Shown piece by piece: positions 10,882-32,000 of a stretch of 32,000 nt of DNA. The notes under the pieces are model-generated. The model saw nothing but the letters and a program-made list of their open reading frames with translations, was not told the origin of the DNA and ran no database searches. The DNA is taken from NCBI GenBank assembly GCA_003144275.1, contig NJBF01000014.1, positions 55,218-87,217 of the forward strand. The letters are read 5' to 3'. Source of the stretch: Candidatus Heimdallarchaeota archaeon B3_Heim. Its GTDB lineage: Archaea; Asgardarchaeota; Heimdallarchaeia; Hodarchaeales; Hodarchaeaceae. Made by a program: the position numbers and the translations under genes. The first letter of the stretch is position 1; the number at the start of each line of letters is the position of its first letter.

Positions 10882-11286
10882 TCAGCTGTTATTTTTTTCC
10901 TCTATCGGGTTACTTTCCTCTTTTGATAAAGTTTTTTTGATTTTATCGTAGATTGCTACACCAGCCTCTCGCCATTTGCTAGGCTCAGTTTCTTTAACGA
11001 TAATATCTCCTTGTTCAATAAGAGCGATAAATACAGCTGAGATATTTTCTATTATCCATTTTTCAAGTTCACTTTCGTTCATCGATGGAAAAGATGAATT
11101 TGATTGTAGAGCTTGTTCAAAAACCATTTTATGAATCCTACGTGTACTATCCTCTCTAAGATCTTGCCATAATTTTCGAATGAGCTTTCGTTCTCTTACA
11201 CGCAGATCTTCAATTTCCAATAGGCTATTCCAAACATTTGAATTCACATATATGGGGGGTTCTTTTGCTTTTTTTCCTTTACCCAT
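10882..11286 (-). CDS. Hypothetical protein
   Basis: Helical-looking ORF ending 15 nt before the MTase start. ATG 11286 preferred; the ORF track starts at TTG 11310. Confidence 0.65.
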   Translation of the reverse strand: MGKGKKAKEPPIYVNSNVWNSLLEIEDLRVRERKLIRKLWQDLREDSTRRIHKMVFEQALQSNSSFPSMNESELEKWIIENISAVFIALIEQGDIIVKETEPSKWREAGVAIYDKIKKTLSKEESNPIEEKNNS

Positions 11287-11332
11287 TTTACATTCACAAT
11301 CCTTCTGCAAAATTTTGGTTTTTGCCTGATCC

Positions 11333-11593
11333 TCAATACATATAATCCTTTTTACTTTTATGAACTATGAATCGATGAATAATTACAAGCCAAACAAAGC
11401 TCACAATACCCATACCAACAAGTAATAAGGAAATCAAAGTTCTTACCCATGTTGCATCTTGAAATCCTGGAGGACCATCAATATTATCAGGAATGAAATT
11501 TGGAAAAATTAACCCAGCAGAAATCAGCACTATAGCTACTAATAATCCAAGAATTTCGGTGCGAAATTTTTCTAATAGTCGTGAAAGTTGCAT
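11333..11593 (-). CDS. Small two-TM membrane protein
   Basis: Two hydrophobic segments (ILGLLVAIVLISAGLIF; LISLLLVGMGIVSFVWLVII); co-oriented with the two downstream genes. Confidence 0.7.
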   Translation of the reverse strand: MQLSRLLEKFRTEILGLLVAIVLISAGLIFPNFIPDNIDGPPGFQDATWVRTLISLLLVGMGIVSFVWLVIIHRFIVHKSKKDYMY

Positions 11594-12110: not shown

Positions 12111-15100
12111 ATGGCAAGTTCAGGACAAGATCGCGGTGTGAGTTTTGGTTATCGTTCATGGTTTAAACCATTTCGATATAATCAACAGCTAATTCAACCC
12201 ATCTTTATTTTGGACTATGAAGCCACTAGTAGAAAAGAAGATGCTTATGAACCTTACTTTGATTCAGAGGATAGTTACGAATCGGGTAGTAAAAAAAGGA
12301 CGATTAATGGTGTTCAGATATATTTTCTTGATGAAGAGCATAACAAACGAAGTGCTTTCTTACGGCACGCACCTTACTTCTATCTGCTAATAACATCTGG
12401 TTTAACGAATAATCAAGTAAATCGCATAATAGCTCGGATTCAGGAGCTGGGGGAGGATAAAATTGTTATGGTCACAAAGGAAAAATGTCACGATGCTGCT
12501 GATCTAACTTTTCTTGTAACTAAGGACTTTCTTAAAGTGACTGTCGATCATCCTAGGTCTGTTCCTAGCTTGAGATCCCAGTGTGAAAAAATAAAAGGTA
12601 TCATTGAATGGAGAGAAGCTGATGTCTTATATAATCATCGAGTAGCTATTGACCATAATATTAGAGTGGGCTCGTGGTATCAAGCTGATATTAATGGAGG
12701 AGAAATTCACAAACTCGATATCTTAAATAATATGGCCCCTCCAGATCTTCAAATTCTTGCTTATGATATAGAAACTGTTTTTGATCAAACTCGTGAACCA
12801 AATCCGAATCGTGATGCAATTTCCATGATTTCATTATTCACGGGCAAGATAAATCATCTGATAATAAATGACGATGTTGTAAACACGAAAGAAGTCTCAG
12901 GCATTGATATCGTGTTGATGCAGAAAGATGAAGATCATTCAAAGCCTTGGGTTGATTGGTGTAAGACGGGCACAACATTTCCTAACTCTTTACTTATTGA
13001 TCGAGTACCAGTAGAGGTACAAGTTTTCAATAATGAACAACAGCTTCTTCATCGATTTTACGAGATAATTGAGGATTACAAACCGGATGTACTGGCTGAT
13101 TTTTTTGGTGATCGTTTTGACATTCCATTTTTAGCTGTTCGCTCATTACTTTACAATATTTCTCTTGAGAGAAGAACTGGTTTTCGTATCAAATTCAAAC
13201 GGGAGTCAACAGGACAAAATACAGGACCCATTGATCTTAGAGAAAACTATTCCCCTGCTAGAATTGATTCAGTGTCGGGAGCAGGAATAATTCATCTTGA
13301 TGCATTTTTATTCAACGAAAAATATAGTTACTTACCTAAAAAAGACTTAGGACTGAAACCGAGTGTTGAAAAGAAGCTTAAGATAATTCCTATTGGTCGG
13401 GAGGCACTTTTTGCAATCGAAGAAAGCCCCGTTGATGCAGTAGGATATGCAGCGTGTGACGGCTATATTACTTACCGGTACGTGAAAGAAATTGTATTAG
13501 ATTTCTTTATTTCCTTGGGACAAATGTTTCCTGTTCCATCGTCAGAATTATTAACACGTCGTGCTGGTTCGCTTGATGATTTGTTAATTGATGCTGAAGG
13601 TCATCATTACAACATAGTTGGAAAACGTCGTATCGATCAAAAACATATTGAGTCTTTCTCTCCTAATATTATGATTGATTCCTTTGCATATACAGGAGGA
13701 CTTGTTGAGGCGAGACGTTCAGGTATTTTTCGAAGTGACATTTATAGGGAAAACAAAACCAATAGAAAAGCATTAACTGAGATCAAATCGCTTATACAGC
13801 AAATTATTGTAAAGAACAGTAAAGATATCGCGAAGAGGGAAATGAAAAACCAATTTGATAGAAAAGTGTTAGAGAAATTTGGTGGTTTATCGATTTCCTA
13901 TTCAGATGACCTAGAACAGTTATTTCAGAATTTTTTCTTAGCTTTACAAGATAAAGGGGTATCTAAATCGCTTTTTGAAGAGAAAAATGATATCTTGCGC
14001 AGTATACTTGAGGATCTTTCCAATATTCGTGTTGAGGGAGTTGAAAAAGTCGTTGAAACTACGCTGAAGCAAGTCGATAAACTTTTGGAAACAACTGGTG
14101 ATGTTCAGCTAAGGGGTGTACATGTAGATGTCACTTCTATGTATCCTTCGCAAATACGTCAATATAAACTTCAGCCTTCAGGTATTGTACCTCTATCAAA
14201 GTGTCAAGTATGTGAATATAGAGAAAATGATGATAGTTGCTTTTTTGAAGGGGACTGGGTAATTAAACTTACCGCTCGTAGACCATGCAAACATAGAGTA
14301 AAGGGATCATCAAAATGTGATCCCTCAATATGTACCACTAAAAATGCATCTTCGTGTAAAGAGTATGAACCAGAACAAGCTACAACTGGGCGAGTTCAGG
14401 AAATATTTTCTTATAATGGTTCTCAAACACAAGCTTATGTGTTGAGAAAAAAGTCAGGATTTGTCAAAATACCGTTAAGTAAATCATATTTAGGTAAAAA
14501 TTTCACCTCTGTTGATCCCTATAATGAAATAACGAAGTGGTTAGAGCATGCAGTAGAAGCAACTCAACTTGGAAGCCATTTAGATAGAAACTTCTTTGAT
14601 ATTTTTGAAGATCAACCAAAATTATTTCAGCTTCCTAAGAATACATATCTAAGTATTGATGTTAGGACAAAAAAGATATCTGTTCTCATTTCTGTTCAAT
14701 CGCGAGTGTGCCAAAAAGCTTTCAATTTTGTAGCCCGAATTATGGATGAATTTTTCAATACACGGGTTAGACATAAATTTGAAGCGCAGCGATTAAAACA
14801 AGTTATCAAACAAAGAAGTGTTAATAATCAGCCAGTTTCACCAGATATGCTTCGTCAACAAAAATTTCATGATAGTACACAGCTAGGCATGAAAGTTCCA
14901 TTAAATAGCATCTATGGTTTATTAGGGATGCGTGGTGGGGTAAGAAATGCCAGCACGCCGTGCGCTGGTATTACTACAAAGTTATCTGCTGATTTAATTC
15001 ATTGGGCTGCAGACCAATTAGAAGATATTGGAAATGTAACAGAGCTAGATACCGATGGAGTTTGGTTATGGGTTCCTAAAGAATTTCCCCTTGATTTTCC

Positions 15101-16535
15101 GGTTACATTGATAAATCCTGTAGAATTAGATGAAAAACTTGAGTTTCGAGTGAGTCTCATTGATAAAATATTAAATGAGAAGGTGTCTAAGGCTGGTTTT
15201 AAAAATGACAACTATTGGATAAACGATGGGGAGAAAATCAAAAAGATCAGTAAAAGTTTAATTCAATTCGAGCAAGATGGACCTTATGATTTTCAATTTG
15301 TCATGGGAAAGAAGAAATATATAGTTTATAATTATCTATCACAGGAGAACAAGTGGGAGGAAGAGGAGATTACAGGGTTGGAATCAAAGAGAGCAGATTT
15401 TTCAAAGTTACAAAAACACTTTCAGGAAGAAGTCATAAAAGCGTATCTAGAGCAGTATGATCCAGTTCATCCCATTGCATTGGAACAGATTTATCAAAAC
15501 GCCTTTAAGGCATCGGATAGAATAAGAAAAGAAGTAATGGATGGGAAAATAGATCCATCATTTTATGTCAAACCTAAGGCTCTTAACAAAGACCTAAAAG
15601 AATATAAGTCAAAATTACCTCAGGTTACTGCAGCCTACATTTTAAAGGATCTTGGTTATTCCATTGATCCAGGAATCCGTATCCAAATGGTTAATATAAA
15701 GGGAAACCACGTTATCCCTGCTCAGGTATTTGATTTTGATTTTAAAAAGGTTAAATCTGTCTTCATTAAACATGGAATATGCACATTAAGTTTTATGCTG
15801 AATGAAATTACCTCGATCGCAGATATCCAACAATTAATCGATACGAAACAGTATTTGAAAGATATTTACGACCCTGGTAGAATTTTTGATCGAATGATAC
15901 AATATCCGATGAAGAATCAACAAATTAAAACAGAAGATCAGCATGTTCTCGATATCCAAGAAATTGAAATCGCCGAGAAAAAGAAAATCCTTGAACAAGA
16001 GTCGGAAGAAATAGGAAAATCACCAGCCAAATCTTCTTCAGTAGAAGGTAAAGTACCACTCCCTCGGCCTGTACATATATCAACCAGATCACGGTTGAAA
16101 AAGTCTAAAAAGAAAAAAGTCAAAACAAAATCTCTTGATACAATTTTTAATTTTCCAAAAGCAGCTAAAGCTCAACCTAGTCAGCGTCGGAAAAAAATTA
16201 TTAAGCCTACTAAGCCTGTAACAAAACCCTCCCTAGGGAATAAGTTAATGAAGACTATACTTCATAATGAAAAGGGGCTAAGTTCTCCTAAATCTGGTTT
16301 GGTAAATTCTAGTAAACAAAAATCAACTTTAGTATCGACTGATGAAATTGAGGAATTAGAAGAAAAAGAGTTGTTTACTAATGGTAATAAAATTGAGGTA
16401 AAATCATCTTTTTCTCAAGTTGATGTGCAAGCGGATGAAGAAATCGTATGTAGCCTGTGTGGGGCTTTCATAAGTCCTACAGAAGTCATTGATGAAGGGT
16501 GTATCTATTGCCATGACCAACCAGTTACTGAATGA
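12111..16535 (+). CDS. polB: Family B DNA polymerase, DNA polymerase epsilon catalytic-subunit-like
   Basis: Pol2-like N-terminus (YFLDEE, PYFYL, HRVAIDHNIRVGSWY); ExoI YDIET, ExoII GDRFDIPF, ExoIII YAACDG; YTGGLVE..SGIFRSD; region II HVDVTSMYPS; region III KVPLNSIYG; region I ELDTDGVW; FEQDGPY; KKKY; CysX cysteines at C698/C701/C710/C867. Confidence 0.93.
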   Translation: MASSGQDRGVSFGYRSWFKPFRYNQQLIQPIFILDYEATSRKEDAYEPYFDSEDSYESGSKKRTINGVQIYFLDEEHNKRSAFLRHAPYFYLLITSGLTNNQVNRIIARIQELGEDKIVMVTKEKCHDAADLTFLVTKDFLKVTVDHPRSVPSLRSQCEKIKGIIEWREADVLYNHRVAIDHNIRVGSWYQADINGGEIHKLDILNNMAPPDLQILAYDIETVFDQTREPNPNRDAISMISLFTGKINHLIINDDVVNTKEVSGIDIVLMQKDEDHSKPWVDWCKTGTTFPNSLLIDRVPVEVQVFNNEQQLLHRFYEIIEDYKPDVLADFFGDRFDIPFLAVRSLLYNISLERRTGFRIKFKRESTGQNTGPIDLRENYSPARIDSVSGAGIIHLDAFLFNEKYSYLPKKDLGLKPSVEKKLKIIPIGREALFAIEESPVDAVGYAACDGYITYRYVKEIVLDFFISLGQMFPVPSSELLTRRAGSLDDLLIDAEGHHYNIVGKRRIDQKHIESFSPNIMIDSFAYTGGLVEARRSGIFRSDIYRENKTNRKALTEIKSLIQQIIVKNSKDIAKREMKNQFDRKVLEKFGGLSISYSDDLEQLFQNFFLALQDKGVSKSLFEEKNDILRSILEDLSNIRVEGVEKVVETTLKQVDKLLETTGDVQLRGVHVDVTSMYPSQIRQYKLQPSGIVPLSKCQVCEYRENDDSCFFEGDWVIKLTARRPCKHRVKGSSKCDPSICTTKNASSCKEYEPEQATTGRVQEIFSYNGSQTQAYVLRKKSGFVKIPLSKSYLGKNFTSVDPYNEITKWLEHAVEATQLGSHLDRNFFDIFEDQPKLFQLPKNTYLSIDVRTKKISVLISVQSRVCQKAFNFVARIMDEFFNTRVRHKFEAQRLKQVIKQRSVNNQPVSPDMLRQQKFHDSTQLGMKVPLNSIYGLLGMRGGVRNASTPCAGITTKLSADLIHWAADQLEDIGNVTELDTDGVWLWVPKEFPLDFPVTLINPVELDEKLEFRVSLIDKILNEKVSKAGFKNDNYWINDGEKIKKISKSLIQFEQDGPYDFQFVMGKKKYIVYNYLSQENKWEEEEITGLESKRADFSKLQKHFQEEVIKAYLEQYDPVHPIALEQIYQNAFKASDRIRKEVMDGKIDPSFYVKPKALNKDLKEYKSKLPQVTAAYILKDLGYSIDPGIRIQMVNIKGNHVIPAQVFDFDFKKVKSVFIKHGICTLSFMLNEITSIADIQQLIDTKQYLKDIYDPGRIFDRMIQYPMKNQQIKTEDQHVLDIQEIEIAEKKKILEQESEEIGKSPAKSSSVEGKVPLPRPVHISTRSRLKKSKKKKVKTKSLDTIFNFPKAAKAQPSQRRKKIIKPTKPVTKPSLGNKLMKTILHNEKGLSSPKSGLVNSSKQKSTLVSTDEIEELEEKELFTNGNKIEVKSSFSQVDVQADEEIVCSLCGAFISPTEVIDEGCIYCHDQPVTE

Positions 16536-16799: not shown

Positions 16800-19025
16800 A
16801 TGGAAAATATCCAAAAATTACAGAAATATGGCTCATTAGAAAGCTTTGCACTTGATCAAACAGAAGAATTTCTTCGACCAAAGACCCCCCTAGATTATAT
16901 TTTTACTCTTGCACTCATTTTCTGGTGTATTGTAGCTGTGATATTTTCTGGTGATTCACCTATACGAGCAACATTATTTGGACTTGTTCTCATTTTATTT
17001 TTCGTAATTCCTATTTCTAAATTCTTTTCAAATGATGAGAGAGATATTCCTTCCCCACTTAATAGGGCGGTGAAAATACTCATCGGATTTCTCATCATTA
17101 ACATTTTTTCGTCAGCCTCTGTCACTTTTGAACTCTGGGATATGAATTTTCCAGATTTAACGTATTACGAATTTGAATCTTTGATGGCGTGCATTCTCAC
17201 TCCACTAGCAATTATTTGGAATAGATTCGATTTGAAAACCTTACAATTCGGCTATTTTTATTATGTTGGTGAAGTATTCCGTGGTTTTTGGATAGCTACT
17301 ATAGTCATTTTCATATTAAAGGGTTTTTCCATCCCGTTTTTACCTGCAAGTTTCAATTTCGAATTAGAACTATTACTTCTTGCTGCTCTCACATTTAATA
17401 TCCTCGGGATTATTCTGCCTGGTAACTCACCAAGACAAAATGTTTCAATAAATACTCTTCTACGTCAGAATTTTGCACTGAAGAATAGAGTAGAAAGGAT
17501 TCGTGATGGATTCCTCTCTTCATCTGTAATTCTACTGGCATTCTTGTGGCTTGGTTGGATAGTAAACAGAAAAGAAGTCATTCAATATTTAGCGTTTTTC
17601 TTCTTGATAATTGGGGTGTTACTCTTATTGGCACCTCAAAGAAAAAGAACTAATGGGCTAAATTCAGTTCTTAATTCGCTTACAGGTAAGATTGTTGATC
17701 CTAACAGTCAAGTTGGTAGTCGAATTAATGAATTCGCAAGTGCTATTCAGGAAACATCCTTTGAGAAACCTGCACGAGTTTTTACTATCCCAACAGATGA
17801 CATGAAGATAATAAGCAAAGGTAAAACGTCCATTTCAGCTAAAAAAGGGGTAATAGCGGTCCCTACTGTTACAGAAAAAGGAACAACTCTTGTTTTAATG
17901 GGAAAATCTGAGGTATCGACAGAAACAGAAGAACAAGAGGTGTCTACCAAAGAAGTCGATGGCACAACAACAGTCTGGGTTCCACCTGAAGAATGGGATC
18001 AGATTAAACTTCAGCTCCAATCGAAAAATGTCAGTGAACTAACTGAAAATGAGTTAATGTCTGCAGGCCTTGATTCAGCTTCTGAATTATTCACTAATGT
18101 CAAACAAGCAATATCTCAATTAAAAGACTGGAAGGGCCCTCAAGGGATTTTTTCTTCGGTATTTGATACAACTCCATCAAAATATACCATCACAGAAACT
18201 AAAGATTATACATTAGTACGATTACCAGGAATCTTTGTTTTTGAAAAGCTCGGAGTTGAGCTTGTTCAGATATTAGGAGGAGTAGTTCAAGTTGTAGAGA
18301 TAAAAGGGGTAGGAGAATATGTCAAAATTCTCGGAGGGTTGATTACCGTTTTGGAAACTCCCGATTACTCCTTCGTACAAACACCATTTGTGTCTGTATT
18401 GGAAACTCCTGCAGGGGAAATTGTAAAAGTTTTTGGTATACGTATACAAGATGGAGAAAAAATAGATTTGAACAAAGCTCGCAAAGAAATTACGATGGCT
18501 CAAGAAAGGTTTGATAGCCTCTTTACTGCTCAAGTGGAAACTCTTTTCTCAGGCGAAATGCCGAATTTGCTGTTAACAAACTCTGAGGGGGAAAAGGAAG
18601 GTTTCTTAATTGGTGACTCTGAATATCTAAGTGATCAGGATGTACAACCAAAACGAAAAAGCAGAAAAGAAGATACAAAATCAACTTCCTCAAAGAAGAT
18701 AATAGGCCCTTCAGTTTTTACAAAAACAATTACTATAGGACCACAGACTGACCAAAAAACCGAGGAAAAACAAAAAATTCAGCCAGTAGAATATCAGTAT
18801 GATGAGGAGGGTATTCCAATTGATCATCCCGAGCTTTTATCATTGGATAACGATCTAGCTCAAGTTGAGGATTCTTTGGAAAAAGCAGATGAAAAATTTC
18901 TTAATGACGAAGTATCAGATCAAAAACATGAGGAAATCATTAAGCGATTAACACTGAAAAAGTCTAGAATAACAAAAGAACGGGAAAAATTAGTGGAAAA
19001 AATCAGGTTAAGATTTGTTGATTAA
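16800..19025 (+). CDS. Hypothetical membrane protein: ~8 N-terminal TM helices, soluble region with beta-hairpin-like repeats, C-terminal helical hairpin
   Basis: About eight hydrophobic segments in the first ~280 aa, five 16-19 aa repeats at 18198-18456, and a charged helical C-terminus. Confidence 0.8.
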   Translation: MENIQKLQKYGSLESFALDQTEEFLRPKTPLDYIFTLALIFWCIVAVIFSGDSPIRATLFGLVLILFFVIPISKFFSNDERDIPSPLNRAVKILIGFLIINIFSSASVTFELWDMNFPDLTYYEFESLMACILTPLAIIWNRFDLKTLQFGYFYYVGEVFRGFWIATIVIFILKGFSIPFLPASFNFELELLLLAALTFNILGIILPGNSPRQNVSINTLLRQNFALKNRVERIRDGFLSSSVILLAFLWLGWIVNRKEVIQYLAFFFLIIGVLLLLAPQRKRTNGLNSVLNSLTGKIVDPNSQVGSRINEFASAIQETSFEKPARVFTIPTDDMKIISKGKTSISAKKGVIAVPTVTEKGTTLVLMGKSEVSTETEEQEVSTKEVDGTTTVWVPPEEWDQIKLQLQSKNVSELTENELMSAGLDSASELFTNVKQAISQLKDWKGPQGIFSSVFDTTPSKYTITETKDYTLVRLPGIFVFEKLGVELVQILGGVVQVVEIKGVGEYVKILGGLITVLETPDYSFVQTPFVSVLETPAGEIVKVFGIRIQDGEKIDLNKARKEITMAQERFDSLFTAQVETLFSGEMPNLLLTNSEGEKEGFLIGDSEYLSDQDVQPKRKSRKEDTKSTSSKKIIGPSVFTKTITIGPQTDQKTEEKQKIQPVEYQYDEEGIPIDHPELLSLDNDLAQVEDSLEKADEKFLNDEVSDQKHEEIIKRLTLKKSRITKEREKLVEKIRLRFVD

Positions 19026-19059
19026 CATTCTTGAATTTCAACTTTTGTGTTAGAAGTCT

Positions 19060-21000
19060 TTATGAGATGATTAATGCTTTTAGATCTGAAATTATTGCCT
19101 CAATTTGATATTTTGATTCAGCTAAAATGAATAGATCATTTTTCAATTGCAATTTGCGAATTCGATCCCTCAGAACTTTTTGAATTTCGTCCTGGGAGTC
19201 TAATGCGTTATTTTCAGCCCATTCTATTAATAATGTAACTGAACGGGTGAAATATTCTACCGTTTCCCTTTCTTTTTGGTTCATCAGGGATACTAAACCT
19301 GCGTTATGATATATTGTACTACTCCGTCTCCAACTAATCAGTGCGTTGGTCAGAGACCGATTTCTTTGGTTTAAGATAGAATCTGTCTCCTCCATATTTG
19401 ATAAAATTTCAAATGCGGTGTAAAAATTGCTCGCAGCTTCTTCAAAATTTTCTATATTAAAGGAATTGTTTGCAAAGAGAATTAACACAGGAATTAATTC
19501 AGTTGCAGGAGCTTTGGCAATAGTAAGTAGTTTTTTTGATCGGGAGAGACAATCTCTGGATAGTAAATAGTGATTTTTTTCCATTTCAATCCGTCCAATT
19601 TCATAAGTTATCAACCCTAACAATCGTTGTAGAAGTTCATCGCATTGATCTTCAGGAAGGATGGAAGCAGCATTATTTAATAATGATAATTTTGATTCTA
19701 TATTTTTTACCGTTTGAGCACCATCATACAACGTTTTAAGAGCTGATTGGAAATTGTCCACACGTTTAAATAATGAGGAAGCATGTATTACAAGAGTTAT
19801 TCCTTTGTTTTCATTTTCTAAGGAAAAATATACTTTAGCAGCTAGCATTAAAGATGTAGCAGCTTCCTCGAGCCCTTCATCACTCTTTTTAAGGAAATCA
19901 GCAGCTCTGATTCTTTGTTCAGCAGATTTACGCGTCAAGCCGAGGGCATATGCTGGATTTTCTAGTTTTTCCTTTTCCGCTTGGAGCATTAACTTACTGG
20001 CATATGTCGAAGTATATCTTGCCGCAATCTGACTATCAATTTCTTCAATCAACTTTACTGCTTTCTCAAAACATCCGTTTGCTTCTTCAAAATGATTGAG
20101 ATCTTGATATACTAGTGCCATATCATACTGTATTGAAGCTTGCGATTTAGGGTCTTTTATCCAGACAGCTCCACTTTGAAACAATTCAATTGCATGATCA
20201 TTATCACCTAATTGATACGCCATTTTTCCTGCTAAACAGAAAGCCTGTCCTGACTTTTGAAAATCATGAGCTCTAGAGAAAGCATCAGTAGCTTGTTTGA
20301 AAGCATTTTGTGCATCTTGGAAGTTGTTAGCGGCTTGGAAAATGTTCCCAGATAAAATAAATGCTTCACCCGCTGCTTTATCATCAATATTTTCTAACCG
20401 ATTAGCCACTTTCATAGCTGTCCAAAGTTGATTACGATCTTTGAGTTTATACCATGCCTCACTTGCTGTTTGTAAATCTTTAAGGGCACGAGGAATAGCG
20501 TAATCCGAATCTATATCGGTAGGATCAAATTGGGGTTTTTTCAACGGAGGGTCGCTAATTGAATCTGTAATTTTTTGCCATACTAATCTTGCATTAAAGG
20601 CATCTTTTTCTTCCTTTAATATATCTAAATATGTAAAAATATGTGTATCAAGATGTGTATTTAAAAGATTTGCACTGTCGTGTTTACCAATTATAGCTAG
20701 AAAAAATGGTCGTTCTTCTCCACGAATTGAAGGATCAAACCATGCATCAAATGCCACTCGGGCGAGAATATTTTGTCCTAAACTCAACAAAGGAACACTA
20801 AATTCAGTCCTCTGAGATTGGCCATGTTGACCAAAAACTGTTACTGAAGCTAAATATATTTGTAATGCTATTGATTCAGGGTCGTCGAAAGCCAATGGAT
20901 ATAGAGAAATTATCGATGGTCCCGAGATGTCGTCCCATAGAACCGCTAATATCACATGGTTAAACTGCTGCATATCAAAATGAGGTGAGCTTTCGGACAA
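19060..21000 (-). CDS. uDENN/longin-like N-terminal domain fused to alpha-SNAP-like TPR repeats
   Basis: N-terminus ILAVLWDDISGPSIISLYP ... DPSIRGEERPFFLAII, then helical repeats such as AAGEAFILSGNIFQAANNFQDAQNAFKQA. Start is TTG 21000 (abutting the upstream stop) or ATG 20973. Confidence 0.75.
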   Translation of the reverse strand: MSESSPHFDMQQFNHVILAVLWDDISGPSIISLYPLAFDDPESIALQIYLASVTVFGQHGQSQRTEFSVPLLSLGQNILARVAFDAWFDPSIRGEERPFFLAIIGKHDSANLLNTHLDTHIFTYLDILKEEKDAFNARLVWQKITDSISDPPLKKPQFDPTDIDSDYAIPRALKDLQTASEAWYKLKDRNQLWTAMKVANRLENIDDKAAGEAFILSGNIFQAANNFQDAQNAFKQATDAFSRAHDFQKSGQAFCLAGKMAYQLGDNDHAIELFQSGAVWIKDPKSQASIQYDMALVYQDLNHFEEANGCFEKAVKLIEEIDSQIAARYTSTYASKLMLQAEKEKLENPAYALGLTRKSAEQRIRAADFLKKSDEGLEEAATSLMLAAKVYFSLENENKGITLVIHASSLFKRVDNFQSALKTLYDGAQTVKNIESKLSLLNNAASILPEDQCDELLQRLLGLITYEIGRIEMEKNHYLLSRDCLSRSKKLLTIAKAPATELIPVLILFANNSFNIENFEEAASNFYTAFEILSNMEETDSILNQRNRSLTNALISWRRSSTIYHNAGLVSLMNQKERETVEYFTRSVTLLIEWAENNALDSQDEIQKVLRDRIRKLQLKNDLFILAESKYQIEAIISDLKALIIS

Positions 21001-22782
21001 TTAGATAATCTCCATGAATTTAAGTTTAAGATGTCTGATGTCAATTAAAGCCTTTTTAGAATCTGAACTAGTTTCTAGCATTTGGATTTCCTTGACATTC
21101 TTAATCTCAATCGTAGGTGATAGAGGTGTAAATGATTCTTGGCCAGACATACGTATAATTATGAAAATTTTTTCTTTTGACTCCAAATTCCAGGTTAAGA
21201 GAGAATTTGATTTTTCTCGAACTATGGTCGGCCGAAGATGTATTGGATCAACAAGAGATATACTATAATCAAGTGGTATGCGATCAATTAACGTGATTTC
21301 ATTGGTTGACATATTTTCAATTGTATACATCCAAATGTACTCACAATCAAATGAATCTATAAGTGGTTGTGAAATTTTATTACAGGTGAGTTTACCTGGA
21401 TCAGTTTCAACTTCAGTTATATAGTGGCGAGTTAACGGTTTCTCCTTAAAAACATAATTTGAGGAAAAAGTATCACCAGGGGGTAGATTACTAAATATCC
21501 ATCTAAATAAAGTTGAATCATGTGTTGGAATCCTAACAGGACGAATTTTTTGAGGAGAATACGCTTGATTCACAACTAATTCTGGAGGGATAACGTCTTC
21601 AATCAGTATTTCTTGGATAGCTCCTCCTGTTGTATTAACGAAGTTCAATTGAGCCTCTAAATTCTGATGCAAGGAATGGTATAAATTCAAAACTACAACT
21701 TGACGTTCTTTTCGGAGTATGATCGATCTTTCTACTCGTTTACGTAACACATACTCAATGGTGCCTGTTTTTCCTGGGATCAGTTTTTCAGCTTTCCAAG
21801 TGAATACTGTTCCTTCCTTTGTTTTTTTTCTGTTGTTTAATTCAAAATCTGTCTGGAAATCGACTACTTCCCACCTATATGGAATTCGATCTACTACTTC
21901 AATATCTACGAGGTCTTCTTCGTATTCATTTGTAATTTCCGTTTTAGCAGCATATTCGAGGTCTAAAGTGTCAGTAACATTCATACGTTCTGTAGAAGGT
22001 GCTTCATCTTGTAAATGTTCTGTATCTTCAACTTTTGAGTCTAATTTTGACTCCGTTTCTTTATCTGCCTCCTTTACTTTATTGATGCTGATTTTAGGGT
22101 TAATAGATGATCTTGGTGACAAAAATTTTGTTTCTCCCCTTTGATCTTTTACTACAGCATCACTTCTTATTTTCTTGTCTGATTTTTTTCTTACATTTTC
22201 CGAGACTGCAGCTAATACTGCGAAGGAATTCATTTTAGAGGGATCATCAGTCTTTAATTGAGGGACAATAAAATCTTGACGATTGAAATCAATATCAGTA
22301 TTATTCACATAATCACCGTCATCAAGAGGTAATAAATCTTCTTCTTCCTCCAGAGGTAATATCTTGATATCTGGAAGCTCTTCCTCAATATCAGTATGAG
22401 CAGATTCATCCTCTTCCTGAATGTTTTCCTCATCTGCAGATATTTTTCGTTCTAGGGCATTTAATGCCATCTTAAATTGATAAGTTGCAGAAGTAAAACC
22501 ATATTCTTTTCCCTTATCGACAAGAATTTTCGCTGTTTCAATATCTTCAGTCATTAGATGCCTAACGATAGCTTTTCCATAACAACTGGCAGCCTTATCC
22601 ATTTTCTTAATTTCTAGATAGAAATCTCCAGCAATGGTTAGATATTGGCCTGCTTTTCTTCTGTTACCTTTTGAATCGAAGCATTTAGCTGTTGATTCAT
22701 AGATTTCTGCGGCAATCACCAGAGAGTGGCTAGTAGCGGTTTCAGCTTCCGTTGCTAATTGTTCACAACTTATTTCTGTCAT
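21001..22782 (-). CDS. SNAP-like helical N-terminus, acidic disordered linker, three DUF11-like Ig/beta-sandwich domains
   Basis: AAEIYESTAKCF...KAASCYGKAI; a D/E-rich linker; three ~100-aa units marked by IEVVDRIP, ILIEDVIP and ITLIDRIP, each with a downstream F/L-x-W. ATG 22782 preferred over TTG 22812. Confidence 0.75.
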   Translation of the reverse strand: MTEISCEQLATEAETATSHSLVIAAEIYESTAKCFDSKGNRRKAGQYLTIAGDFYLEIKKMDKAASCYGKAIVRHLMTEDIETAKILVDKGKEYGFTSATYQFKMALNALERKISADEENIQEEDESAHTDIEEELPDIKILPLEEEEDLLPLDDGDYVNNTDIDFNRQDFIVPQLKTDDPSKMNSFAVLAAVSENVRKKSDKKIRSDAVVKDQRGETKFLSPRSSINPKISINKVKEADKETESKLDSKVEDTEHLQDEAPSTERMNVTDTLDLEYAAKTEITNEYEEDLVDIEVVDRIPYRWEVVDFQTDFELNNRKKTKEGTVFTWKAEKLIPGKTGTIEYVLRKRVERSIILRKERQVVVLNLYHSLHQNLEAQLNFVNTTGGAIQEILIEDVIPPELVVNQAYSPQKIRPVRIPTHDSTLFRWIFSNLPPGDTFSSNYVFKEKPLTRHYITEVETDPGKLTCNKISQPLIDSFDCEYIWMYTIENMSTNEITLIDRIPLDYSISLVDPIHLRPTIVREKSNSLLTWNLESKEKIFIIIRMSGQESFTPLSPTIEIKNVKEIQMLETSSDSKKALIDIRHLKLKFMEII

Positions 22783-22798
22783 TATTGATTCTCCCAAC

Positions 22799-23182
22799 CT
22801 ATTTAATCGCAACGAAGGTAGATTTTATAATCAACACTTCGGAAACTCGTGGTGTATAGTCATCTAACGGATCTTTATCATCATAAGGAATTTCTTGGAA
22901 TGTACGGGAGAAAATTACCCAGGCAACTCTTTTATTATCACTTGTGACAAATCGTTTTATTTTTTGATACGCATCCTCTGGTTCATCTTGAAAATATTTG
23001 ATAGACAAATCTTTTACTTTTTGCAGAGAGGTTTTTTCCTGATCTTGTGCATATAAATGCATACTTTCTAACAGATCGGCTTCTTTTGGATTTATTTTTT
23101 TTTCTTTTAACATTTCGACTATTAAGGATCGATTTGTTAAAGAATTCTTTGCCTCTGCAAAAGTTACATTGATAAATGGCAT
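22799..23182 (-). CDS. Hypothetical protein, first gene of the three-gene cluster
   Basis: 127-codon ATG ORF ending 16 nt before the next ATG; no motif recognised. Confidence 0.7.
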   Translation of the reverse strand: MPFINVTFAEAKNSLTNRSLIVEMLKEKKINPKEADLLESMHLYAQDQEKTSLQKVKDLSIKYFQDEPEDAYQKIKRFVTSDNKRVAWVIFSRTFQEIPYDDKDPLDDYTPRVSEVLIIKSTFVAIK

Positions 23183-26924: not shown

Positions 26925-28745
26925 TTGGAGTTTCTATCTGTGTCTGAATCAGTATTTGATGTTGTAGTTCTTGACACGAACTTTTTCATTTCCTTGTTGA
27001 ATGCGGGTGTATCTGATTCCTTAATGCCAAATCTTCAAAAAATTGGGCAATCTGTAGGGATGGAGATAATGGTACCTGATGAAATCCCGAAATCAGATAT
27101 TCCTGGACGATTCCGGCAATTACGACGACTTATACCAAAGTATATACGTATGGAACCTGTTAAGAGATCCTCGAAACTGTGGAATCGAACAGCAGAATAT
27201 GCTATTCAAGAACGGATGGTACGTGTAAAAGACGATCCTGCAGATATCGATGTTGTAATTTTAGCTAAAAAATTTAGTTTGAAAGATAACAACAAGGTAG
27301 CCTTAGTCTCTGATGACGAAGGTGTTGCTAGAATAGTTAAAGAAAACAAAGTATTCAAAGGGATTGACCATTTATCATGTGGTTCGTTTGTTTCGATCTT
27401 AGCAGCATCCGTATCTGACACGAAGATGCGTAAAATTTTGGATCAGACTGTTGAGAGAGTTTTTCGCGCATCATGGAGTTATAAGAAGAAAACTCGTCGA
27501 TATATTGATGTAGCAATGCTAATTGATGATCTAACCGATACTGCGAGATTTGTCAGGTCAGCAGCTGAAGTGGGGGCCGACAGTAGTCTGGCAGAAATCG
27601 AAAAAGAAATTGTCGCAATCGCCCCAAAACACGAACCCGAAGTGTTAACTCCTGAGGATGGTTTAATTATTGCTCAGCAATTAGTGATAAAAGCCCGTGG
27701 AACCCGAGAAACCTTTCATATTCACAAAGCAGAAGAGGTACTTCTCGAAATTCTAGCAAAAAGCTCCGAATTAATTTATTCTATTGATGGGCTAGAACAA
27801 CGCGTTATAGTAGAGAGAATGCTGAGATCTGAATTATTCGAACACCATAGTTGGTTATTAGATTATAGAATATCACGTAACCAAATTGTAGAAGCATTAG
27901 TACATGCTGAAGCTTGTCGAGTATATATGAACTACATTGCTGTAGGGAGAGAGGCAATAGAAAACTTAATAGCTTTACAAGGTTTACTATACTTACTGTT
28001 AGGGAAGTATGAACGAGCATTAGAACTCTTTAAAGCCGTTCCTCAAATGGATCCAGAACTTTCTTCTACTCAAATACTAGGGTTATCAGTTGCCTTAATA
28101 GCAACTGGTCAACAGAATGAATCAGCTCTGTTGATTAAAAGGAATTCAGATATGATGGAAGGATTAATTTCTTCTATGCATGCCTATGCGAATGATCTTT
28201 ATTCGCATGAACAGCGTGAGTTAGCAATTAATATTTTAAAATTCCTTGTAAAGAATTTTAGTAAGCAAGAGGAGGTAGATCGTTCGGTATATCGTTTATT
28301 TGTTTTGACAAGGCTACGTCAAGATTTAGTTAATAGTGAAGTAAAAATTCAGGGAATCTTTAAGAGAAAATTACCAAATCGGGGGGTAGATGACTCTAAA
28401 AAAGGAATACCTAAAAGGCTACTGAGTAAAGTTCCCATAGTATTGTCAACAAGTGAAGATCCAAAAGAAATTGAACAATTCAAAGGCTTTTACCATATAC
28501 TTGATTTAATAGAGGATCGTGAAAAAGATGAGATTAATGTAGTCGCTTGGAATGAGAGCAATAATTCTACATGGCTATTAATATTTGATTCTGCGTACAA
28601 GCCAGCTTTAGAAGAAAGTGTCAAAATTAGAATTACTAGTGGTGAAATCACAAATATTCGCAAAGCTAAGAGAACTGAACCATTTCGTGCAGCTCTTACT
28701 TTCGAGATCCCAACCATTCAGCCAGAATTAGTAAAACCTTGGTAA
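26925..28745 (+). CDS. PIN-domain protein with central TPR-like helices and a beta-rich C-terminal domain
   Basis: VVVLDTNFFISL, PDEI, DPADIDVVILA and LVSDDEGV give the PIN acidic residues; TPR-like segment QGLLYLLLGKYERALELFKAV. TTG start. Confidence 0.8.
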   Translation: MEFLSVSESVFDVVVLDTNFFISLLNAGVSDSLMPNLQKIGQSVGMEIMVPDEIPKSDIPGRFRQLRRLIPKYIRMEPVKRSSKLWNRTAEYAIQERMVRVKDDPADIDVVILAKKFSLKDNNKVALVSDDEGVARIVKENKVFKGIDHLSCGSFVSILAASVSDTKMRKILDQTVERVFRASWSYKKKTRRYIDVAMLIDDLTDTARFVRSAAEVGADSSLAEIEKEIVAIAPKHEPEVLTPEDGLIIAQQLVIKARGTRETFHIHKAEEVLLEILAKSSELIYSIDGLEQRVIVERMLRSELFEHHSWLLDYRISRNQIVEALVHAEACRVYMNYIAVGREAIENLIALQGLLYLLLGKYERALELFKAVPQMDPELSSTQILGLSVALIATGQQNESALLIKRNSDMMEGLISSMHAYANDLYSHEQRELAINILKFLVKNFSKQEEVDRSVYRLFVLTRLRQDLVNSEVKIQGIFKRKLPNRGVDDSKKGIPKRLLSKVPIVLSTSEDPKEIEQFKGFYHILDLIEDREKDEINVVAWNESNNSTWLLIFDSAYKPALEESVKIRITSGEITNIRKAKRTEPFRAALTFEIPTIQPELVKPW

Positions 28746-28782
28746 TAAATATCATACGAATGGATTACCTTAATCTATCAAT

Positions 28783-29775
28783 TTACACCATTGTGAAATC
28801 TACTTCGTTCCAAATAACCCGTAATTTCTCAATTTGACCTGCCAGTGCACTAGTTTCAATAAATGCGGGTAAATGTTGCTCAATTGGTGTTTTGAAGGTT
28901 TGTTTGTCCATTATTAAAAGCGTAATTAGTTTAGGTGAAACCACTTCGAAATATTTGTTCCAAGTGGTTAAGTTTGGATGTATGATATTTGAAATTTCTT
29001 TTGGATTGCGTTGGGGGATAACTGGATGCCACCCATGATCCTTTTCAATAATTCCTCGCAAACAGATTTTCGCCATTGACGCTGCAACAATAACTTCTTT
29101 TCCTAGTTCACGAAATAGCTTTGCTATTGTTACGGATCCAATTTTGTTTAGAATTTTTCCATTCACTCGTATCATATCAGCACCAAATACTGCTGCTTCT
29201 GCTTGTTGAGCGAATTCATGAATCGCTAAATCAATTCCAAGAACGACGTTTTTAAAGCCGGCATTAGCTAAGGAATAGGCTGTTCGTTCTCCTTCCTTCA
29301 AGGGTCGTGATTCTAAAATATATATGACTTTATCTGTAAATCCTTCACGTGCTAATTGTAAAAGGGCTTTTATAACAGTAGACGAATGAGAGAACGTTAA
29401 AATTGACTTAAATCGTTTTAATGTATTGACCAGTGTCTCTCGTGTCTGTTTTTCACCAATTCGTAATTGTTCGCGTCTGGTTGCGAAGATCATTTCTATC
29501 GCTGGTTTTGAATCACCATTCTCTAAATGAGGGGAGTCTATAAGTTGCACAAGACGGACGTATATTGGTAAAAGTGCGTTTTCGATTGTAGCCATTGGAT
29601 GTGTGTCGAGAAGGAGCTGAATTGCTGTTTTCAAAAACGATCGGGAAAATTGATTCCTTGTTGTCAAACACTCTTGTTTCAAAGCAATTAAGCAGCTTTC
29701 CGCGATCTTAGCTGCTCCACTATGGGTATCATTATGAATTGTTTCTACTTCTTTTAAGAAAGTTCTAGATGGCAC
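28783..29775 (-). CDS. eIF-2B alpha/beta/delta family protein (aIF-2B/R15P isomerase-like fold)
   Basis: HSGAAKIA, ILTFSHSSTV, ESRPLKEG, GADMIRVNGKILNKIGS, RNPKEI...NKYFEVV. Confidence 0.87.
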   Translation of the reverse strand: MPSRTFLKEVETIHNDTHSGAAKIAESCLIALKQECLTTRNQFSRSFLKTAIQLLLDTHPMATIENALLPIYVRLVQLIDSPHLENGDSKPAIEMIFATRREQLRIGEKQTRETLVNTLKRFKSILTFSHSSTVIKALLQLAREGFTDKVIYILESRPLKEGERTAYSLANAGFKNVVLGIDLAIHEFAQQAEAAVFGADMIRVNGKILNKIGSVTIAKLFRELGKEVIVAASMAKICLRGIIEKDHGWHPVIPQRNPKEISNIIHPNLTTWNKYFEVVSPKLITLLIMDKQTFKTPIEQHLPAFIETSALAGQIEKLRVIWNEVDFTMV

Positions 29776-29946
29776 TTTAATTCCAACAACTACTAACGCT
29801 TAAATTTTGAAAGGGTATTTTTTTAACAATATCTATCCTCTGGCTAAGAATATCAGTATGGGGTTGATGTTTTTTTATGAGGTGAACTTCCAATTTCAAC
29901 TCTATTAGTGAATTTGTACTAAATATCGCTGATATAAATGTTCTAA

Positions 29947-30994
29947 CTAACGAGATTCGTATCTCTTATGGATTAAGCGATAGTTATTTGCCAAACGTCC
30001 TAGTTTATGTGCTTCGTCTGGAGTCAAATGATAAGAATTAGATTCTCCATTTTTGTTTGTTGCTTCAATATAAGCGAAGGATGCATTATCAACAAGTATT
30101 TCAGTATTTTTATGATATCCTGTATCACCTGTGAATGCTAGCCATTTTTCACCCTTAAAGTAGATTGCATAACCCAATGACGGAATTGGTGACATTGCTC
30201 CCACTCCGATGATTGACCCCTGATGCTGCATTTGATAGCTTTCAATCTCAACTTAATCAGTAATTTTTACCCTGTCCCCATGAGATAATCTTAATTCTTC
30301 AAATGGGAAAGGAAGTGACGGCTTATACACTGAAAGGAAGGATTCGATAATAGCTTGAATTTCATTGCTCCCTTCTGGTGAATAGACACTTACAACTTGT
30401 CTATGACCAAGCATGCGTAAAAAACCTAGAAAAGTGTACAAACCTCCACAATGATCAAAGTGCCCATGATCATTTTTGTCCGACAATTCCCTAGTTCTCA
30501 TATTCGCTGACCTCTCTCTCTCCCTTACAAACTTAAAAGGCGTCCCTCCTGTACTTCATCAACACCGAGGTGATGACAAAAAAATTTACTTAGCTCCTAG
30601 GTCATATTCCCTTGTAACTTCGTTAGACGAGTTACCCGTCAAAGGCAAGAGAAGAATGACCCAGACTGGTCAAAAAGTTTTGGTGTTTGGGATGTCGCCA
30701 GAAGATCTGATGCAAGTAGTCCCAATGGAAAGCAACAATTCTCTGGTTGCTAACCAGCCGGATAGTGGATGTGTGACTCATCCTGTCCAGAACTATTTTT
30801 CAAATAGTTGTCTGACAAATTTAGTCATGAGAGATTAAAATGTGAACAGGCTTATTTATTGGGAATGCATTCTTATTCTCCACTATATCGCGAAGGGTCC
30901 CACCTCCTATATCTAAGAATAATAAGAAATCCTCATCAGTTACAAGAATAGTTGTAGCAATTCCTGCAATAGAATAAAGAACTTGATGTTCCAT
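29947..30994 (-). pseudogene. Disrupted RNase Z/BN-like MBL-fold metallohydrolase (insertion plus premature stop)
   Basis: ATG 30994 encodes MEHQVLYSIAG...LDIGGGTLRD...HILISH. The frame resumes after the insertion as GHFDHCGGL, has an in-frame TAA at 30253-30255, and continues with QH, GDTG, IEAT, HLT, LIH. Reconstructed length is about 228 codons. Confidence 0.88.
30469..30825. mobile_element. ~357-bp non-autonomous MITE-like insertion
   Basis: Flanked by duplicated CATG(A) at 30465 and 30826; imperfect terminal inverted repeats ATCATTTTTGTCCGACAA / ACTAAATTTGTCAGACAA (13/18 identical). Removing it restores TCT CAT GGG CAC. About 45% G+C by hand count over 30481-30780. Confidence 0.8.
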
Positions 30995-31005
30995 ACGGAT
31001 TTCCC

Positions 31006-32000
31006 TTAATCTGGAAAAGAGTTGTCTTCAAGTAATTTTTCAATTAAATTACTTCGTAATGCAATTTCTCTCTGAATACCTGCCTCACCACCAAATATAT
31101 CCTCCATGTGTTGAATATTCAATATACTCATCAAGATCATTAATGCCAGGTGGAAGTTGATGGGGATATAGTCTTTAGAATAATAATCGGTAATGCTAGA
31201 TTGATTATGGGCTAGAATTTCCTTATAACCTGCTAAGAATGACTTAATATTCATTGCAAGCTTAGTTAACGTCTTGTCCATTCTGTACTGATCCACTGCT
31301 TCTACAGCAAAGAAGTTACAGATATCTTCCAACCGATCATTCTCAGAAGAAATGTCTAGAAACTCAGGATCGATGATATGGGTTTGAATCATTGGATTCC
31401 TCCCAACTCGAATATCAAAGATTAGATTACCAGGATGAAAATCACCAAAGCTAGGACAACCAGAATGTTGTGATGCTTGTTCAGCTAAAGGAAGAACACG
31501 GTTAAAACTTGTTTGTAGTTGCAATTTCTTTTCACCAGAAATAGGTGCGGATTCAAGGCTGCGCGCTAATAATAGCTTATATTTATCAAACCAGACACGA
31601 TTTTTCTGCGCGCCATGGAATGCAGCCAATCCTCGACCTGCATAGCGATATTTTTGTGGTTTGGGAATTTTGGATTCACGAAAAACATCACCCTGAATTC
31701 CTTCCATAATAATTACGCTTCCTGAAAAGAAAATAACTGATGCAGATGCTATTCCCATCTTTGCATAATCAAAAAGACGTTTCTCCAACATATTGATACG
31801 TTTGACTACCTCAAGAGCTTGTTCTGACTTATCATATATTTTTACAGCAATACTCGCATCGTCAGAACCTACTTCAGAATCGAGAGCAACTCTGACAATG
31901 TGTATGCCAGTTGAACCTAATTTCTTTTCTACAGTAATATTTTTTACTTCTATATTACCTGGAGATTTATTGTAAGTTTTTTCTAAGTGAGACGCGAAAT
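31006..32000 (-). CDS. APH/choline-kinase-like phosphotransferase, 5' end beyond the window
   Basis: The frame is open from the window edge (KKLGSTGIHIV, IAVKIY lysine, EQALE) through the catalytic loop GDFHPGNL and IIDPE. The ORF-track ATG at 31791 is internal. Confidence 0.82.
   Translation of the reverse strand, partial: FASHLEKTYNKSPGNIEVKNITVEKKLGSTGIHIVRVALDSEVGSDDASIAVKIYDKSEQALEVVKRINMLEKRLFDYAKMGIASASVIFFSGSVIIMEGIQGDVFRESKIPKPQKYRYAGRGLAAFHGAQKNRVWFDKYKLLLARSLESAPISGEKKLQLQTSFNRVLPLAEQASQHSGCPSFGDFHPGNLIFDIRVGRNPMIQTHIIDPEFLDISSENDRLEDICNFFAVEAVDQYRMDKTLTKLAMNIKSFLAGYKEILAHNQSSITDYYSKDYIPINFHLALMILMSILNIQHMEDIFGGEAGIQREIALRSNLIEKLLEDNSFPD

Follow-up and report, generated by a model that had tools for sequence, protein, structure and literature searches.

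A Hodarchaeales group B10 DNA polymerase related to the catalytic core of Pol epsilon, with conserved CysX cysteines and two enlarged palm insertions

Archaeal group B10 of the family-B DNA polymerases (PolBs) was defined by Kazlauskas et al. (2020, NAR) from the Heimdallarchaeota LC3 and B3. It was described as the sister of the N-terminal module of eukaryotic Pol epsilon, with which it has a glutamate of motif C in common, and as carrying a C-terminal domain (CTD) with one cysteine motif (PMC7544198). In that study, the glutamate preceding DTDG was a synapomorphy common to B10, G3 and Pol epsilon, and the single C4 finger of B10 did not cluster with eukaryotic CTDs (PMC7544198). Subsequent publications reported an "epsilon DNA polymerase subunit only found in Hodarchaeales" (Eme et al. 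2023, PMC10307638), a Pol epsilon-Asgard clade supported at 100% (2024 preprint, bioRxiv 10.1101/2024.04.22.590592), and a PolB1 with a Pol-epsilon1 N-terminal domain (Nat Ecol Evol 2025, PMC12680538). Here, we analyze such a gene from Candidatus Heimdallarchaeota archaeon B3_Heim, located in a stretch of 32,000 nucleotides of contig NJBF01000014.1 (positions 55,218 to 87,217, assembly GCA_003144275.1), hereafter the window. With a probability of roughly 0.85, we conclude that it encodes a Hodarchaeales B10 PolB that is predicted to be catalytically competent and capable of proofreading, and that, among known prokaryotic proteins, is the closest homologue of the active N-terminal module of Pol epsilon. 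An initial reading of the window by a model, made from the letters without database searches (the sequence-only reading), had stated that Pol epsilon-like genes were reported in Heimdallarchaeia, and rightly so (PMC7544198, PMC10307638, PMC12680538). Because the B10 family is published, our headline, the polymerase family and its kinship with Pol epsilon, is already known. Absent from the papers searched are the invariance of the four CysX cysteines, both palm insertions, a second cluster of four cysteines (Cys4), and the Phe or Tyr that replaces the ExoII Asn in all but the LC_3 subclade. These points, namely CysX invariance, insertions that are shared with Pol epsilon but larger, a further Cys4 cluster, and an ExoII exchange that runs through the clade, may be useful additions.

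On translation, the gene is one unbroken open reading frame (ORF) of 1474 aa on the forward strand (window 12111-16535, Table 1), and full-length homologues cover 100% of the polymerase, starting at residue 1. The interval first proposed for it, 12111-15930, describes the catalytic core well but not the ORF: position 15930 (aa 1273) marks where the core stops, and beyond it the frame continues to 16535 through a low-complexity linker and a C4 finger. As expected of a family-B DNA polymerase, the protein matches PF03104 (5.6e-24, 85.3 bits) and PF00136 (9.6e-11, 41.5 bits), both above the cut-off, and carries ExoI-III and motifs A, B, and C. A script located AYDIET at residue 217 (ExoI), FFGDRFD at 331 (ExoII), YAACDG at 446 (ExoIII), GIFRSD at 538, HVDVTSMYP at 671 (motif A), and ELDTDGVW at 978 (motif C), among them every motif string cited by the sequence-only reading. 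The polymerase residues of motifs A, B, and C and of the KKKY motif are intact in this protein and invariant in the family.

All the hallmarks of B10 were found: placement in the LC_3 clade, E-x-DTDG, a single C4 motif in the CTD, and restriction to Hodarchaeales. Over its full length, the protein is 37-42% identical to the LC_3 polymerase (P0064) and to the relatives of P0064; with other proteins of Hodarchaeales, identity reaches 55-95%. The glutamate of motif C (E978) is invariant in our alignment of 60 sequences, where ordinary Asgard PolBs read YGDTDS, and the C-terminal C4 finger occurs in 44 of the 47 full-length archaeal homologues. The motif C glutamate, the single finger, the one-order restriction, and the sister relation to the Pol epsilon N-terminal module in the tree are all as published for B10; the protein is another B10 member that differs in nothing essential.

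Sequence searches consistently placed Pol epsilon next to this archaeal family. In a phmmer search of the PDB, the catalytic subunits of yeast and human Pol epsilon were the best matches (E 8e-58 to 3e-51); the next family was that of the Thermococcales PolBs, at 3e-14 and weaker, and Pol alpha, delta, and zeta gave no matches to the polymerase at E<=0.01. Searching a collection of 5.8 billion proteins recovered 68 Hodarchaeales/Heimdall proteins, followed by eukaryotic POLE at 23-29% identity; among the 68 was "DNA polymerase [Heimdallarchaeota archaeon LC_3]", that is P0064, a full-length homologue with an E-value of 6.5e-239. Similarly, HMMER against 1.84 billion representatives returned the archaeal family first, with full-length members at E<=1e-178 and a few fragments, and then, from about 1e-65, mostly proteins of about 2000 aa among the matches listed. 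The C-terminal half of Pol epsilon was detectable by BLAST in 87 of the 135 listed matches outside the family. Of five named ~2000-aa matches that we looked up, four are called Pol epsilon, and the fifth is a hypothetical protein of a eukaryotic parasite.

The predicted structure agreed well with these searches. Residues 1-1200 were modelled with AlphaFold2 (AF2) from an alignment of 60 sequences; this model of the core reached a predicted local distance difference test (pLDDT) of 86.4 and a predicted template modelling (pTM) score of 0.83. Searched with Foldseek against the PDB, its top 36 matches were all Pol epsilon cores (E 1.6e-61 to 7e-48), with TM-scores of 0.64-0.68 normalised by the query and mostly 0.69-0.77 by the target; KOD/9N-type enzymes followed at about 6e-32 with a TM-score of 0.49. 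With VIA-align, 858-924 residues of the model could be superposed on those Pol epsilon core chains listed that are full-length (Z 27 to 34.3), including the Fe-S-bearing 6h1v (Z 29.2, 893 aa, 3.8 A), compared with 628-688 residues on ordinary archaeal PolBs (Z 27-29.7).

A quick IQ-TREE phylogeny (LG+C20 with posterior mean site frequencies, 69 rows, 1146 columns), rooted with eleven other Asgard PolBs, supported B10 at 100, Pol epsilon at 100, and their union at 99 against the other Asgard PolBs by the SH-like approximate likelihood ratio test (SH-aLRT). LC_3 P0064 falls within the same 100%-supported B10 clade as the window polymerase. When we looked for distant relatives of less than 810 aa, for example bacterial G3 PolBs, that might serve as a closer outgroup, only fragments of the B10 family came up, and the outgroup is consequently limited to Asgard PolBs. 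Constraining Pol epsilon to group with the LC_3 subclade, which retains the ExoII Asn, made the tree 38 log-likelihood units worse and was not rejected by the approximately unbiased (AU) test (p-AU 0.125). In the best tree, B10 and Pol epsilon are each monophyletic with respect to the other, although this arrangement is not secure, and with these data Pol epsilon nested within B10 is indistinguishable from Pol epsilon as its sister, a question that bears on the direction of descent. Taken together, the PDB phmmer search, the search of representatives, Foldseek, and the tree support the Pol epsilon-type core that the sequence-only reading had claimed, rather than an affinity with other archaeal or with viral PolBs. 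That reading had named a phylogeny and a structure prediction as checks. The phylogeny came out in its favor, B10 and Pol epsilon joining at 99% SH-aLRT apart from the other Asgard PolBs, and the AF2 model is best matched by Pol epsilon in all of its top 36 Foldseek results.

Set beside the N-terminal module of Pol2/POLE (PDB 6h1v, 4m8o, and 9ne6), the archaeal protein has the same fold, the ELDTDG and xMYP motifs, the two palm insertion sites, CysX as C-x2-C-x8-C...C, and intact proofreading carboxylates. It differs in that the identity is only 24-29%, the insertions are longer, an extra Cys4 is present, ExoII has a Phe, and the interior of the P-domain is unalignable by sequence. It also lacks the inactive C-terminal PolB module and the CysA and CysB zinc fingers, which bind the B-subunit in Pol epsilon: we found no match in the polymerase to PF08490 (DUF1744, the inactivated second PolB module) at E<=0.1 and none to PF22912 or PF23250, whereas the eukaryotic Pol epsilon matches do carry PF08490. 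Where full Pol epsilon continues, the archaeal tail consists of a predicted disordered linker and one C4 finger. With ordinary archaeal PolBs (KOD, 9N, Tgo, and the copies on contigs C57 and C100 of the same genome), the protein has the PolB fold, PF03104, PF00136, and the DEDDy and DTD residues in common; those enzymes, however, have YGDTDS rather than ELDTDG, short stretches of 16 and 9 residues where the two insertions lie, and no P-domain, full CysX, or C-terminal linker with finger.

The four CysX cysteines of yeast Pol2 (C665/C668/C677/C763, PMC7544198 supplement) hold a [4Fe-4S] cluster (PDB 6h1v/6qib titles; PMC7544198). In the archaeal protein, the corresponding cysteines 698, 701, 710, and 867 were found by script exactly where first noted (C-x2-C-x8-C ... 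VCQK), and in the phmmer alignment C698/C701/C710 and C867 fall opposite the CysX-bearing stretches of Pol2, the C-x2-C-x8-C spacing being identical; the pattern is not one of chance. All four are invariant in an alignment of 56 sequences, comprising 47 full-length archaeal homologues and 9 eukaryotic POLE proteins; in the 60-sequence alignment, which includes 28 eukaryotes, C701 reaches at least 90% conservation, while C698, C710, and C867 show no variation. In both AF2 models, C710 directly precedes a strand (711-723) and C867 ends another (855-867), a placement that, as modelled, fits a beta-ribbon base bringing the CysX cysteines together. By analogy with Pol2, the base of a collar would carry a [4Fe-4S] cluster bound by CysX or, failing that, some other metal. 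The literature searched contains no mention of CysX conservation in archaeal B10 proteins; the sole paper found to name both CysX and Asgard describes CysX, like the P-domain, as "not in other PolBs" (PMC7544198).

The palm of the protein is enlarged at two sites. The helical insertion that the sequence-only reading had seen after GIFRSD is confirmed by the AF2 model (helices 552-590, 601-614, 619-637, and 644-660) and by anchor counts: ordinary Asgard PolBs have a median of 16 residues from G530 to D673, Pol epsilon has 83, and B10 has 142. The second insertion lies at the position of the P-domain, between the third and fourth CysX cysteines, with medians of 9, 83, and 156 residues in the same three groups, and is flanked in both AF2 models by the two strands mentioned above, of 13 residues each. 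Both insertions thus occupy the same palm sites as in Pol epsilon and are about 60-70 residues longer in B10; among the PolBs compared here, they are otherwise seen only in Pol epsilon. Immediately after the third CysX cysteine, the archaeal insert contains a second Cys4 cluster that is invariant in every archaeal homologue aligned and falls in a segment that is a gap in the eukaryotic Pol epsilon sequences aligned. The 711-866 insert would form a P-domain-like collar around the nascent duplex, conferring intrinsic processivity, and the archaea-only Cys4 cluster would bind a second metal. We tentatively propose, at somewhat less than even odds, that the Fe-S-anchored P-domain was already complete in the archaeal polymerase, with two metal centres, formed by eight invariant cysteines at the foot of an enlarged P-domain, of which eukaryotes kept one.

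Several observations qualify this picture of the insert and its cysteines. The interior of the insert (717-850) gave no sequence alignment to the Pol2 P-domain in phmmer. When residues 664-880 were modelled in isolation, the pLDDT was 71 and Pol epsilon chains appeared only at E 0.26-0.33, neither Foldseek nor a wide VIA-align search giving a significant PDB match for this region, a result that speaks neither for nor against a P-domain fold like that of Pol2. Moreover, an ordinary Asgard PolB clade has cysteines at two to three CysX-equivalent positions: a C-x5-C after motif A and a VC at the position of the fourth cysteine, and no P-domain insert. This clade includes the 852-aa copy of the same genome (L002, contig C57 ~28344-31985) as well as L028, L029, and L031. 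Two of the cues first cited are less diagnostic than claimed, such cysteines and the Met before the steric-gate Tyr, which also occurs (as SMYP or SMFP) in several ordinary Asgard PolBs; what sets B10 and Pol epsilon apart is the complete set of four cysteines combined with the insert. The C-x5-C/VC clade could itself be a three-cysteine precursor, or a parallel, of CysX.

These cysteines could instead be purely structural, binding zinc or forming disulfides, with CysX having become an Fe-S site only in eukaryotes. The C57 clade favors this explanation, as does the spacing of the second cluster, C-x9-C-x4-C-x7-C, which differs from the ferredoxin-type CxxCxxC. Cysteines of the same loop in B1 and B3 were likewise suggested to be important for thermostability and not for cluster binding (PMC7544198 supplement), which also counts against an archaeal Fe-S site. 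On the other hand, the four CysX cysteines keep the exact Pol2 spacing and are invariant across the 47 archaeal and 9 eukaryotic sequences at about 25% identity, and the same four residues do hold the [4Fe-4S] cluster in Pol2. A disulfide would need two cysteines only and would be unlikely in the cytoplasm of an anaerobe. A solely structural role for the cysteines strikes us as rather doubtful.

The replacement of the ExoII Asn by Phe (FFGDRFD), which had been pointed out from the sequence, is factually right. At this position, the 47 archaeal homologues have F in 36 cases, Y in 8, and N in 3, the last forming the LC_3 subclade, whereas Pol epsilon and most of the outgroup sequences, which are ordinary Asgard PolBs, keep the Asn. 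The catalytic DEDDy residues D219, E221, D337, Y446, and D450 are invariant in the 60-sequence alignment. Judged by this comparison, the Phe is a conserved trait of the clade and not a lesion of this gene, and the conservation of an aromatic residue alongside a complete catalytic set points to an exonuclease site that is changed yet functional rather than to decay. The Phe or Tyr would serve as a functional alternative contact for the 3' terminal nucleotide, so that proofreading would be kept.

To place the gene among archaea, we surveyed 400 species genomes of the Asgard phylum in GTDB. Of the 23 further genomes from the order, 22 carried the gene (20/21 in f1 and 2/2 in f2), as against 0 of the 376 others of the phylum; the sole genome of the order without it is a 1.4-Mb assembly that is 71% complete. 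Each genome has one match, apart from copies split by inteins or contigs. The 22 GTDB loci are mostly labelled Hod- or Heimdallarchaeota, with a few labelled Thor-, Hermod-, or Promethearchaeota. The nearest public copy, 96% identical over the core, comes from a metagenome-assembled genome labelled Candidatus Heimdallarchaeota, and the next-nearest copies (81-85% identity) are labelled Candidatus Hodarchaeota. Flanking genes are kept in 13-18 of the 22 related loci at 42-95% protein identity. Contamination by eukaryotic DNA was rejected on the basis of this synteny, the prokaryote-type neighbours, and the lack of introns. A viral or mobile-element gene is likewise unsupported: a tblastn search of 50,697 phage and virus records revealed no relative at E<=1e-5, a pattern scan of IMG/VR gave two distant PolBs only, with MDTDS and without the insertions, and the GC content of the gene is unremarkable, resembling that of its surroundings.

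The gene might nevertheless not be the vertical archaeal ancestor of Pol epsilon. Its confinement to one order and the very long stem branch of B10 in our tree (2.99 substitutions per site) favor non-vertical descent, and lateral transfer was argued by Forterre (PMC12395588) and, more cautiously, in PMC7544198. Against it stand the near-complete presence in the order with one match per genome, the conserved flanks, the surrounding-like GC, the lack of a relative in the tblastn search of phage and virus records, and the IMG/VR scan with its two distant PolBs. In addition, the protein shows no trace of the C-terminal half of Pol epsilon, which a transfer from a eukaryote with complete POLE would carry. 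This evidence may still be compatible with an ancient transfer that preceded the diversification of the order. Overall, we regard non-vertical descent as quite unlikely.

In the cell, the enzyme would be a core polymerase of chromosomal replication, acting beside PolD, which most genomes of the order retain. Here, too, there is contrary evidence, the replicative role being inferred. The source assembly (3.95 Mb, 103 contigs, 94% complete) encodes, besides this gene, two ordinary PolBs (frames of 852 and 874 aa on contigs C57 and C100), DP1, and a 1128-aa DP2, so that PolD and two other PolBs coexist with it. Furthermore, the CTD gave no two-hybrid interaction with DP1 (PMC12680538), and no measurements of metal content or of polymerase or exonuclease activity for any B10 member were found in the literature searched. 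All but the last of these points would suit a specialised or repair polymerase, with bulk replication carried out by PolD, as in most archaea. So would the presence of DP2 in 22 of the 24 genomes of the order, the replacement of the ExoII Asn, and the position of the gene 3' of an HhH-GPD glycosylase gene, with restriction-modification genes between them. A P-domain-type insert combined with intact proofreading residues is, however, characteristic of a processive and accurate enzyme, and near-universal presence in the order also speaks against a specialised function. The LC_3-like genomes add a further argument. The N-terminal Pfam domain of DP2 is weak in G078 and G079, the LC_3-like f2 genomes (E 2e-7 and 3e-9), compared with 1e-35 to 1e-46 in the window's own family; the LC3 and B3 genomes were reported to be without active DP2 (PMC7544198), which suggests that B10 can take over. 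Unlike in that report, DP2 is retained in the family of genomes to which the window belongs. The weak DP2 match in the LC_3-like genomes fits a degenerate PolD whose role B10 may have assumed there. Weighing both sides, we find a specialised or repair role somewhat improbable and prefer a replicative one.

The features of the gene are listed in Table 1. The PIP-like motif in the linker (TKSLDTIFNF, window 16125-16154) is kept, as (Q)SLD(T/S)IFNF, only in the nearest subclade, P0001-P0009. LAGLIDADG inteins split orthologues of several Hodarchaeales genomes close to motif B (aa ~932-935) or to motif C (aa ~976-981), as seen in the related genomes G060, G062, G067, G073, and G074 and in the proteins P0004, P0028, and P0031; the window copy is intein-free.

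Table 1. Positions of the polymerase gene and its features in the window (residue numbers refer to the 1474-aa protein).
Feature	Window position	Strand	Basis
Full gene, 1474-aa family-B DNA polymerase (Hodarchaeales Pol-epsilon-like PolB, group B10)	12111-16535	+	ORF, Pfam, homologues
3'-5' exonuclease domain, aa 168-413	12612-13349	+	Pfam
ExoI	12759-12776	+	motif location
ExoII FFGDRFD	13101-13121	+	motif location
ExoIII YAACD, just past the Pfam exonuclease domain	13446-13460	+	motif location
Helical palm insertion, aa ~544-662, from the GG/GIFRSD hairpin to motif A	13740-14096	+	AF2
Motif A HVDVTSMYP: catalytic D673, steric-gate Y678, M677 before Y678	14121-14147	+	
CysX cysteines 1-3, C698-x2-C701-x8-C710	14202-14240	+	phmmer alignment to Pol2, alignment; pLDDT ~91
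P-domain-position insertion, aa 711-866, CysX Cys3 to Cys4	14241-14708	+	anchor counts, AF2
Second cysteine cluster C726-x9-C736-x4-C741-x7-C749	14286-14357	+	alignment; pLDDT 68-84, loop-rich
CysX cysteine 4, C867 in RVCQK, aligned to the Pol2 VCQR stretch (C763)	14709-14711	+	pLDDT ~95
Motif B, Q924...K928 LNS IYG936	14880-14918	+	alignment
Motif C ELDTDGVW	15042-15065	+	alignment
KKKY, KKRY-type primer-binding motif of thumb/palm	15309-15320	+	alignment
Lys/Ser/Pro-rich low-complexity linker, with PIP-like TKSLDTIF(NF) at aa 1339-1348	15931-16448	+	
C-terminal C4 finger C1447-x2-C1450-x13-C1464-x2-C1467, single-motif CTD of B10	16449-16511	+	

The conserved flank upstream of the gene (window 10882-11593) is divergent and comprises two small ORFs (10882-11310 and 11333-11593), one of them encoding a protein with two transmembrane segments. 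Considered as candidate histone-fold partners of the Dpb3/4 kind, the pair was discarded, since the second product matches no Pfam family and shows no obvious histone fold either. Downstream (window 16800-22812), the conserved genes encode a 741-aa membrane protein, a TPR/SNAP-like protein, and a 603-aa protein without a Pfam match. A functional link between these conserved flanking genes and replication is not evident. The other neighbours are of prokaryote type and include a class-III aminotransferase, an AsnC/Lrp regulator, the HhH-GPD glycosylase, a NUDIX protein, HMG-CoA reductase, and a member of the IF-2B family. Between window positions 5754 and 10866 lie two convergent genes of the Eco57I/N6_Mtase type; their products have 832 and 866 aa, and the larger one includes a TaqI_C specificity domain. 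These upstream methyltransferase genes vary strongly among loci, and the arrangement looks like a variable restriction-modification islet within a syntenic region.

Pol epsilon is among the few replication proteins that tie eukaryotes specifically to one Asgard order, and the gene has for this reason been used to argue, in published work, that eukaryotes belong next to Hodarchaeales. The clade-wide exchange of the ExoII Asn for Phe or Tyr is a natural experiment on proofreading chemistry, and an archaeal homologue of 1474 aa with a single module would be an easier system in which to study the function of the core Fe-S cluster of Pol epsilon. Should the Fe-S-anchored P-domain indeed have been complete in the archaeal polymerase, this would contradict the published statement limiting CysX and the P-domain to Pol epsilon orthologues. 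In that case, the single-module enzyme of Hodarchaeales would offer a simpler model of Fe-S cluster function in Pol epsilon, and a redox-active replicative polymerase would be older than eukaryotes.

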